DNA of 64,000 nt from Escherichia coli O157:H7 (GTDB taxonomy: Bacteria; Pseudomonadota; Gammaproteobacteria; Enterobacterales; Enterobacteriaceae). Location of the stretch: NCBI RefSeq assembly GCF_013167455.1, contig NZ_CP038328.1. The stretch is one strand, 5' to 3'. The position numbers were made by a program. Below are positions 18,001-21,000 of this stretch, in pieces. Position 1 is the stretch's first letter. Every line of letters starts with the position of its first letter.

Positions 18001-21000
18001 ACGCTGGAGATCGAGCAACAAGTTGATAATCTGCCCGCGAATTGAAACATCCAGCGCCGAAACGGCTTCGTCGGCAATGATCACTTTTGGATTCAATGCC
18101 AACGCGCGAGCAATGCAGATGCGCTGGCGCTGACCGCCGGAAAACTCATGCGGGTAACGCCAGGCATGTTCAGGTAACAGGCCCACGCGCTCCAGCAACC
18201 ACGCAACGCGTGCAACCGCTTCTTTACCTGGCAATAAACCGTGTACGCGCAGCGGTTCGATAATCGAATCACCGATGGTCTGACGTGGGTCCAGCGAAGC
18301 GTAAGGGTCCTGAAAAATAAACTGAATATCGCGGCGCAATGCCTGAAGTTTGCCGGGTGACAAGGTATCGATTCGCTGACCGTTAAAGATAATTTCGCCG
18401 CCCTGCGATTCGACCAGGCGCAGCAACGCCCGCCCGGTAGTGGATTTACCGCTGCCAGACTCGCCCACCAGCGATAGCGTTTCGCCAGGCCAGAGATCAA
18501 AACTGACTTTCTCAACGGCATGCACTTCCCGCGTTACGCGATTCAACAAACCGCTGCGCAAAGGAAAACGGGTGACCAGATTACGCACCCGTAAAACAGG
18601 TTCGCCATCCACCACCGTTTTCTGCTCGATGGGGGGGGCCTGTTTCGCTGGATGTTCAAGCGATATCAATGGGAAACGTCGGGGATAATCTAACCCTTTC
18701 ATCGCACCAAGTTGCGGAACAGCAGCTAACAGCGCACGGGTGTAGGGATGTTGCGGTGCATGAAAAATCTGTTCGACGGTACCCGTTTCCACCGCCTCGC
18801 CCTGATACATCACCAGTACCCGATCGGCAATCTCTGCCACCACGCCCATATCGTGAGTGATAAAGATAACGCCCATCGACATCTCTTTTTGCAATACTTT
18901 GATTAATTGCAGGATCTGCGCCTGAATAGTGACATCCAGCGCGGTGGTTGGCTCATCGGCTATCAGCACTGCCGGGCGGCATGACAGCGCCATCGCAATC
19001 ATCACTCGCTGGCGCATCCCGCCAGAGAGTTGATGCGGATAACGTGAAAGAATGGTTTGTGCCTCCGGAATGCGTACCTGATCCAGCATCCGCTTCGCCT
19101 CGACCATCGCTTCTTCACGACTGGCGTTCTGATGCAGACGAATTGATTCGGCAATCTGTTCACCCACAGTAAATACTGGGTTCAGCGATGTCATCGGCTC
19201 CTGAAATATCATCGCCATATCCGCACCGCGCACATGGCGCATTTGTGCAGCGCTCTGCTCGCTAAGTTCAATCACATCACGACTGCGCCGCCGCAACAGC
19301 ATTTTATCGCACTGCACTAAACCGCCCGCCTGTTCCAACAGACGCATCAATGCCAGCGCAGTCACTGACTTACCGGAGCCGGATTCGCCAACAATTGCCA
19401 GCGTCTCACCGCGTTGCAGACTAAAAGAGAGATTGCGGACCGCAGCTATTTTCTGCTGGTCCTGCATAAAGGCAATATTAAGATTTTCAACCGCCAGCAC
19501 ATTACCGGCATCAAGTTCATCACTGTGTGGCAACGGTGTCCCCTTTTTCACGGTAGATACCGGTGGTTGGCGTATCGCCTGCGTAGCCCCAGGCGCGATA
19601 CATTCCTTCGGTGTTAAACGGTAGCGCGACATTCCCTTCATGGTCGATAGCGATTAAGCCACCGCTACCGCCAAGCGCAGGGAGTTTTTCCATTACTACC
19701 CGCTCGCAGGCTTCCGCGAGACTTAATCCGCCGTAATCCATTAACGCGGCGATGTCATATGCCGCCAGCGCGCGGATGAAGACTTCGCCCGTGCCGGTAC
19801 AAGAAACCGCCACACTGGCGTTATTGGCGTAGCATCCGGCACCCACTAAGGGGCTATCGCCAACTCGTCCGGGTAATTTATTGGTCATTCCGCCCGTGGA
19901 CGTGGCTGCCGCCAGATTGCCGTCTAAATCCAACGCCACGGCCCCCACGGTGCCCATTTTCTGTTTTTCATCCAGTGGCGCACCGCTATGGTCGAGGACT
20001 GTTGCCCCTTCCTCGCGCGCTGCCATTAGTTGTTCATAACGCAAAGGCGTGGAGAAAATCTCCGGTGAGACGCGCTCCATGCCATGAGCAAACGCAAAAT
20101 TTTCTGCCCCTTCGCCAATCATCATCACATGCGGGCTTTACTCCATCACCAGCCGGGCGGCAAGAACCGGATTACGCAGATGACTAACGCCCGCCACCGC
20201 ACCGGCTTTCAGGGTGTTACCATCCATCACACAGGCGTCCAGTTCATGCGTTTCATCACGCGTAAAGACGGCGCCAATTCCGGCGTTAAACAGTGGACAC
20301 TCTTCCAGCAGACGCACCGCTTCCGTCACCACATCCAGCGCACTTTCGCCCGCTTCCAGCATTTTCTGCCCGGTTTCAACAATGGCAGACAACGCCTCGA
20401 TGTAGCGTAATTCCTGTTGCAGACTCATCTGCGCGCGGCTAATTGCACCTGCGCCACCATGAATTGCAATGACTGCTTTGCCCATAGTATTCGTCCATTA
20501 AGGGTGGCTCGCCACTTTTGCTATAAATATCAGAATTTTTATGAATTACTCATTCAATTTTTGAATATAGAAAGATGGATATGGCATGTAAAGGCAGGAC
20601 CCAGCGCTACGCCCGAGGTGGCATACAGTCTGTGGCGTTTTTCTGACATAATAGGCAAATTCGATTTTGCCTCCGCAGGAGTGTTTTCATGGAATTTACC
20701 ACCGGATTGATGTCGCTCGACACCGCGCTTAATGAGATGCTTTCTCGCGTCACCCCACTGACCGCCCAGGAAACGCTGCCACTGGTTCAGTGTTTTGGTC
20801 GTATTCTGGCGAGCGATGTCGTTTCGCCGCTGGATGTCCCAGGGTTTGATAACTCCGCAATGGATGGTTACGCGGTACGTTTGGCCGATATCACCTCCGG
20901 ACAACCGCTGCCCGTTGCCGGTAAATCCTTTGCCGGTCAGCCGTACCATGGTGAATGGCCTGCGGGTACCTGCATTCGTATTATGACCGGTGCGCCGGTG

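Follow-up and report, generated by a model that had tools for sequence, protein, structure and literature searches.

A clonally inherited nonsense allele of iaaA, the gene ahead of gsiABCD, in Escherichia coli O157:H7

The iaaA gene and its premature stop codon

The stretch of Escherichia coli O157:H7 DNA analysed here is 64,000 nucleotides long (part of contig NZ_CP038328.1, assembly GCF_013167455.1; it is called the window below and is numbered from its first letter), and it carries on its minus strand an iaaA (ybiK) gene with an in-frame stop codon, followed by the four genes gsiABCD. The iaaA pseudogene occupies positions 19520..20485; on translation it is a full-length homologue of the K-12 isoaspartyl peptidase/EcAIII precursor, 321 codons plus stop, that is broken at codon 116. 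The plus strand letters tta at 20138..20140 are read on the minus strand as a premature ochre codon, TAA, where the ancestral codon is CAA (Gln), the difference being a C-to-T change at window position 20140. Translation of the minus strand gives 115 codons (MGKAV...ARLVME), then the TAA, and then SPHVMMIGEG... in the same frame as far as the normal TGA, 322 codons in all. An earlier reading of the window made without database searches (the sequence-only reading) had reported a single in-frame TAA at this place, after codon 115 and with the frame resuming at SPHVMMIGEG, and our translation returns exactly the same coordinates.

The identity of the gene is clear. With Gln116 restored its product matches PDB entry 2zak_A (E=4e-205, residues 2-321), with only four residues substituted against natural K-12, whose PDB sequence reads Gln at the codon 116 position (VMEQSPHV). 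It is orthologous to the characterised E. coli IaaA by locus, by near-identity of sequence and by conservation of the moeA-iaaA-gsiA gene order, and the PDB match and this synteny agree with the naming of the gene in the sequence-only reading as iaaA, which stands first in the operon with gsiABCD. In K-12 the gene for IaaA/EcAIII (PDB 1K2X, 1T3M, 2ZAL and 2ZAK) likewise sits between moeA and gsiA; the stop aside, the two products share the Gly178|Thr179 site and the beta subunit and differ at four amino acids over 321 residues. What sets the O157:H7 gene apart is codon 116, TAA in place of CAA, which prevents synthesis of the self-processing precursor from the native start.

The stop leaves two open reading frames (ORFs) on the minus strand. 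The N-terminal ORF of 115 codons (20141..20485, or from 20138 with the stop included; Z1051 in strain EDL933) accounts for roughly two thirds of the alpha subunit and spans positions 2-109 of the 309 in the Pfam profile PF01112 (Asparaginase_2, of the Ntn-hydrolase family). The downstream ORF, in the same frame, has 202 codons counted from GTG120 (19520..20128; Z1052 in EDL933); it encodes the rest of the alpha and the entire beta subunit and covers profile positions 114-308. The two fragments score 136 and 232 bits, respectively, against a cut-off of 27. By the profile positions covered, the break falls within the single catalytic domain (109/114). Codon 179 (ACC, Thr; 19949..19951, minus strand), which specifies the N-terminal nucleophile of the beta subunit, is intact in the DNA but lies 3' of the stop and is no longer read from the iaaA start.

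Distribution and origin of the TAA allele

The sequence-only reading had remarked that the TAA "could equally be a sequencing error", the true codon of this one record being CAA. The two alleles were counted in 5,426 complete E. coli genomes with a 55-mer that has the variant base at position 28, so that each 28-base megablast seed spans the single nucleotide polymorphism (SNP). The TAA 55-mer is present in 296 of these genomes, always at 100% identity, and among the TAA matches listed all those with a named serotype are O157:H7 or O157. The CAA (Gln) 55-mer is present in 5,046, and about 83 further genomes differ elsewhere near the site and were assigned to neither count. On these allele-specific counts we reject a sequencing error. 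The 296 TAA genomes were sequenced independently and include long-read assemblies, the window iaaA is 100% identical to that of many complete O157:H7 genomes, the fragment proteins ("hypothetical protein Z1051" and Z1052 of EDL933) are each found on at least 1,000 public contigs, and the allele has a clean phylogenetic spread, being present in strain PV15-279 and typical O157:H7 and absent from strains 493/89 and LSU61 and from O55:H7. Beyond the general possibility raised earlier nothing speaks for an error in the record, and we give it practically no credence. The expectation, also voiced in that reading, that other strains would have a CAA Gln codon is borne out both by these counts and by the K-12 protein. 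That reading would have been refuted by related genomes with the same TAA and evidence that a shorter protein is the norm; half of this applies, as TAA is the usual state within the O157:H7 clone and the exception in the species at large. Five of the iaaA matches, we note, come from records classified as plasmids, and one of the 5,426 genomes has no iaaA match at all.

The pseudogene has been recorded before. It is annotated with an "internal stop" in the RefSeq version of EDL933 (EDL933_RS34085), is ECs_0906 in the curated Sakai annotation, and was split into Z1051 and Z1052 in the original EDL933 annotation. The sequence and lesion of these annotated pseudogenes are identical to those of the window, so they are the same feature; more widely, no difference from EDL933 was seen over 6,966 bp (100% identity), and against Sakai the window runs collinear, with seven mismatches in 43.5 kb. 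Among the papers searched none discusses loss of iaaA/ybiK in O157:H7, but the feature is known at the level of annotation. The O157:H7 iaaA is a true nonsense pseudogene, inherited clonally and annotated before, of a kind that is ordinary for a young pathogenic clone.

When the T at position 20140 is reverted to C, the iaaA of the window is 100% identical to that of the O55:H7 strains DEC5A, DEC5B and DEC5E, the sorbitol-fermenting strain 493/89 (German clone), LSU61, TR01 and a few others. PV15-279, the sequenced representative of beta-glucuronidase-positive O157:H7 (PMC6256406), is identical to the window across iaaA, TAA included, and LSU-61 has been reported to be intermediate between O55:H7 and both O157 branches (PMC7175801). 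A 39-kb region around iaaA was aligned for the window, PV15-279, 493/89, LSU61, DEC5A and TR01; in it the clonal strains are 13-25 substitutions apart. At position 20140 the window and PV15-279 have T, while 493/89, LSU61, DEC5A and TR01 have C, and exactly three substitutions in the 39 kb set the window and PV15-279 apart from the others: IaaA Q116* (20140), GsiC S93R (15808) and, third and last, YbiU G272S (28907, ybiU codon 272, plus strand). All three alter proteins. The iaaA frame therefore has a stop where the intact orthologues and the outgroups (O55:H7, 493/89 and LSU61) have a sense codon, and the lesion is shared by a monophyletic group made up of the beta-glucuronidase-positive (PV15-279) and the typical O157:H7 strains.

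Because TAA is found in PV15-279 and the window, and CAA in 493/89, LSU61 and O55:H7, the mutation is placed on the stem of non-sorbitol-fermenting O157:H7. We infer that one C-to-T transition changed Gln116 from CAA to TAA in the ancestor of this group, and that it happened after sorbitol-fermenting O157:H- and LSU61 had split off and before the beta-glucuronidase-positive and typical O157:H7 strains separated.

Strain TR01 (NZ_CP033605.1, from a Turkish cattle carcass) is labelled O157:H7 and has an intact, ancestral iaaA with CAA. We considered that it might be a revertant and rejected this, since it has 372 mismatches in the 39 kb and the ancestral state at all three stem SNPs. Relative to the clone it also has a gap of about 100 bp, and its differences cluster in the ybiU-fsa segment, a pattern suggestive of another lineage or of tracts acquired by recombination.

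Predicted effects on the enzyme and on gsiABCD expression

In the PDB entries the alpha chains consist of residues 1-178 and the beta chains begin at residue 179 and align to 179-321, which places the autoproteolytic site at Gly178|Thr179. An active enzyme arises from an uninterrupted precursor that cleaves itself there, and in O157:H7 the TAA at codon 116 breaks this frame. Because translation from the iaaA start stops after 115 residues, the precursor would never be made, and without it the isoaspartyl peptidase/type III asparaginase is predicted to be inactive, given the sequence and the architecture known for the enzyme. The 115-residue product has no beta subunit and is short of one third of the alpha subunit, and with that architecture it should have no activity of its own. 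The sequence-only reading had likewise held that the 115-residue fragment lacks the beta subunit nucleophile and that the enzyme should be inactive unless the codon is suppressed; the PDB chain boundaries and the Pfam split do place Thr179 3' of the stop, and together with the reading frame they uphold its main prediction.

Translation is known to restart past nonsense codons in E. coli, as in the lacI restart proteins. A Shine-Dalgarno (SD)-like GGAG (20141..20144, minus strand), which is the coding sequence of Met114-Glu115, stands directly before the TAA and forms a duplex of -5.9 kcal/mol with the 3' end of 16S ribosomal RNA; the native iaaA start region is weaker in this regard, at -3.0 kcal/mol. 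Three candidate in-frame restart codons follow within 18 nt of the stop on the minus strand, GTG120 (20128..20126), ATG121 (20125..20123) and ATG122 (20122..20120), and a +1-frame ATG-TGA start-stop (20130..20125, minus strand) lies 8 nt past the TAA, with the GGAG just upstream of it and its TGA overlapping ATG121. The native iaaA coding sequence around 20125..20130 thus forms a ready-made termination-reinitiation context. It could be supposed that ribosomes restart at GTG120, ATG121 or ATG122, that chains 1-115 and ~120-321 assemble and cleave at Gly178|Thr179 to give an active three-chain hydrolase, and that coupling to gsiA is restored and gsiABCD is spared polarity; the downstream ORF is indeed fully intact in every genome examined in detail. 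We consider this very improbable. The distances from the GGAG to GTG120 (11 nt) and to ATG121 (14 nt) exceed the optimum; the motifs are ordinary iaaA coding sequence found in all E. coli and not evolved signals; the break lies inside the Asparaginase_2 domain, residues 116-119 would be lost, and proteins of this fold are not known to complement as fragments when split here. An intact downstream ORF is to be expected anyway in so young a clone. Nor does the gene look like a functional split gene or a case of programmed recoding, since the stop is confined to one young clone and the motifs are shared with intact alleles. Read-through of the ochre codon is expected to be negligible, and a search of the 64-kb window for a possible suppressor found no tRNA gene in it at all. 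A low-level restart product of 200-202 amino acids, which would also lessen any polarity, is conceivable but speculative.

The gsiABCD genes have been described as operonic with iaaA (PMC10355420), and all lie 3' of it on the minus strand. The gsiA gene (17662..19533) is intact, with 623 codons, a TTG start and a 14-nt overlap with the 3' end of iaaA; its SD sequence, AAGGGG, lies about 5-6 nt upstream and is predicted to form a duplex of -7.8 kcal/mol with the 16S 3' end. The frames of gsiB (16104..17642), gsiC (15166..16086, which carries S93R) and gsiD (14252..15163) are open. A scan of the region for consensus promoters found a single match, a sigma-70-like candidate for the operon promoter (TTTACA-17-TATATT, 20564..20592, minus strand, 10 of 12 positions) whose second hexamer ends 78 nt upstream of the iaaA ATG (20485), and none within iaaA.

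The stop leaves 604 nt untranslated between the TAA and the gsiA start, and the sequence-only reading had raised the possibility of a polar effect on glutathione import. In its strong form this would mean that Rho terminates transcription in the 604 nt of exposed RNA and that translational coupling to gsiA is lost, which would make O157:H7 in effect defective in import by GsiABCD. Several features of the locus fit such a view: iaaA is promoter-proximal and the scan found no promoter-like site inside it, the weak TTG start of gsiA and its 14-nt overlap with the end of iaaA are typical of translational coupling, the untranslated stretch is long, and a missense change in GsiC arose on the same branch. 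As in the classical Rho-dependent polar nonsense mutations of lac and trp, the stop is promoter-proximal and in the first gene of an operon. Unlike those cases, however, iaaA has no evident C-rich, G-poor tract, and gsiA has a strong SD sequence of its own, which is well spaced. The gene contains 314 G and 233 C, and in 78-nt windows 3' of the stop (a crude proxy for Rho utilization, or rut, sites) the C/G ratio is 0.52-1.2 and mostly below 1, reaching 1.05-1.2 only at 20092..19989 and 19624..19521; by this measure the newly untranslated RNA contains no C-rich, G-poor rut tract, and, being G-rich, it is predicted to serve poorly as a rut site. None of the four gsi ORFs is broken, and the missense change is probably tolerated, as discussed below.

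In a Sakai time-course array (PMC2241611 supplement) the probes for ECs0906 (iaaA), ECs0908 (gsiA) and ECs0909 (gsiB) drop significantly and in parallel at the same transition, which speaks against strong polarity as growth-phase regulation of gsiA and gsiB parallel to iaaA, although the values are mean-centred per gene and the profile is common to many growth-related genes, so that support for continued gsi transcription from this source is weak. ECs0906-0909 are not among the entries in the supplements of the Sakai Ribo-seq paper, and a trimethoprim/glutathione study made the gsi deletions behind its reported phenotypes in W3110 only, and so is uninformative on gsi function in O157:H7. Taken together, we regard strong polarity as possible but unlikely. 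With a ribosome-binding site of its own in front of gsiA, and with exposed RNA on which Rho would act poorly, gsiABCD is probably still expressed in O157:H7, perhaps at a reduced level; a polar effect on these genes is possible, and would probably be partial.

The substitution in GsiC, an AGC to AGG change in codon 93 on the minus strand, replaces a residue that is Ser in 119 of 120 close homologues; it dates from the short branch that also gave rise to the iaaA stop. We considered whether it might be a second disabling hit on the operon and did not count it as inactivating, given that the aligned position in solved DppB/OppB paralogues is occupied by Pro, Ser, Arg or His, with Arg in Mycobacterium tuberculosis Rv1283c. 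On this comparison S93R is probably tolerated.

Fixation of the allele and its meaning

A second gene of the window was lost in the same clone. The ybiW gene (24550..26981, plus strand), which encodes a glycyl-radical enzyme similar to pyruvate-formate-lyase, is frameshifted by the loss of 1 bp in a GGG run (deletion after 25079), leaving ORFs of 184 and 599 amino acids, and is annotated as a pseudogene in Sakai (ECs_0900). The exact deletion allele is present in 292 of the 5,426 complete genomes and is not found in PV15-279, 493/89, LSU61 or DEC5A; because it is absent from PV15-279, it is later than the iaaA stop and lies on the branch to typical O157:H7. The two lesions thus differ in age, that of iaaA (296 genomes) predating and that of ybiW (292 genomes) postdating the split between beta-glucuronidase-positive and typical O157:H7. 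Like the +GG frameshift in uidA (PMC7175801), another marker loss of O157:H7, each is a single small stem-branch lesion in the stepwise descent from O55:H7 to O157:H7, in a gene that is otherwise undecayed.

Loss of iaaA, or a damping of the whole iaaA-gsi operon, might have been selected as non-sorbitol-fermenting O157:H7 emerged. The allele is apparently fixed throughout the lineage, and on the short branch where it arose the operon was altered a second time, by GsiC S93R. A truncated IaaA of 124 amino acids (annotated "L-asparaginase") is also widespread in Shigella dysenteriae, with 174 contigs; the gene seems to have been inactivated there independently, and this hints that loss recurs in host-adapted pathogens and that the gene is dispensable in such lineages. 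Yet fixation follows automatically for whatever mutation falls on a clone's stem branch, all three stem SNPs alter proteins, the one in the unrelated ybiU among them, ybiW was frameshifted slightly later, and no phenotype is known. We find adaptive loss improbable. The run of protein-altering stem SNPs and the later loss of ybiW fit relaxed purifying selection in a young, bottlenecked clone, and the iaaA mutation most likely rose by drift or hitch-hiking rather than by selection.

Our overall reading, to which we give a probability of about 0.9, is that the O157:H7 iaaA is a clonally inherited loss-of-function allele from which the precursor would not be made, that it spread by drift or hitch-hiking, and that gsiABCD is intact and probably expressed. 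A few points tell against this reading or lend it no help. Low-level ochre read-through or reinitiation at the TAA is possible as far as the sequence goes; the array profile, as described above, supports continued gsi transcription weakly; and neutral drift is the default explanation and is not demonstrated. The lack of further decay in iaaA is uninformative either way, because the clone is very young.

Elsewhere in the window, espX2 (ECs_0876), which encodes an EspX protein similar to type III secretion system effectors, is inserted between rhlE and dinG at about 54161..56173 on the minus strand (mapped from Sakai 955215-957227).

For genome scanning, iaaA of O157:H7 is an example of a true pseudogene that resembles a possible sequencing error when one sequence alone is viewed. 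Its TAA allele is a single-base marker of non-sorbitol-fermenting O157:H7, absent in O55:H7, sorbitol-fermenting O157:H- and LSU61. For the organism itself, the allele implies that O157:H7 would be without hydrolysis of isoaspartyl dipeptides of the IaaA type, and, if the stop should be strongly polar, glutathione import would be lower as well, with a possible bearing on sulfur nutrition or periplasmic redox balance.

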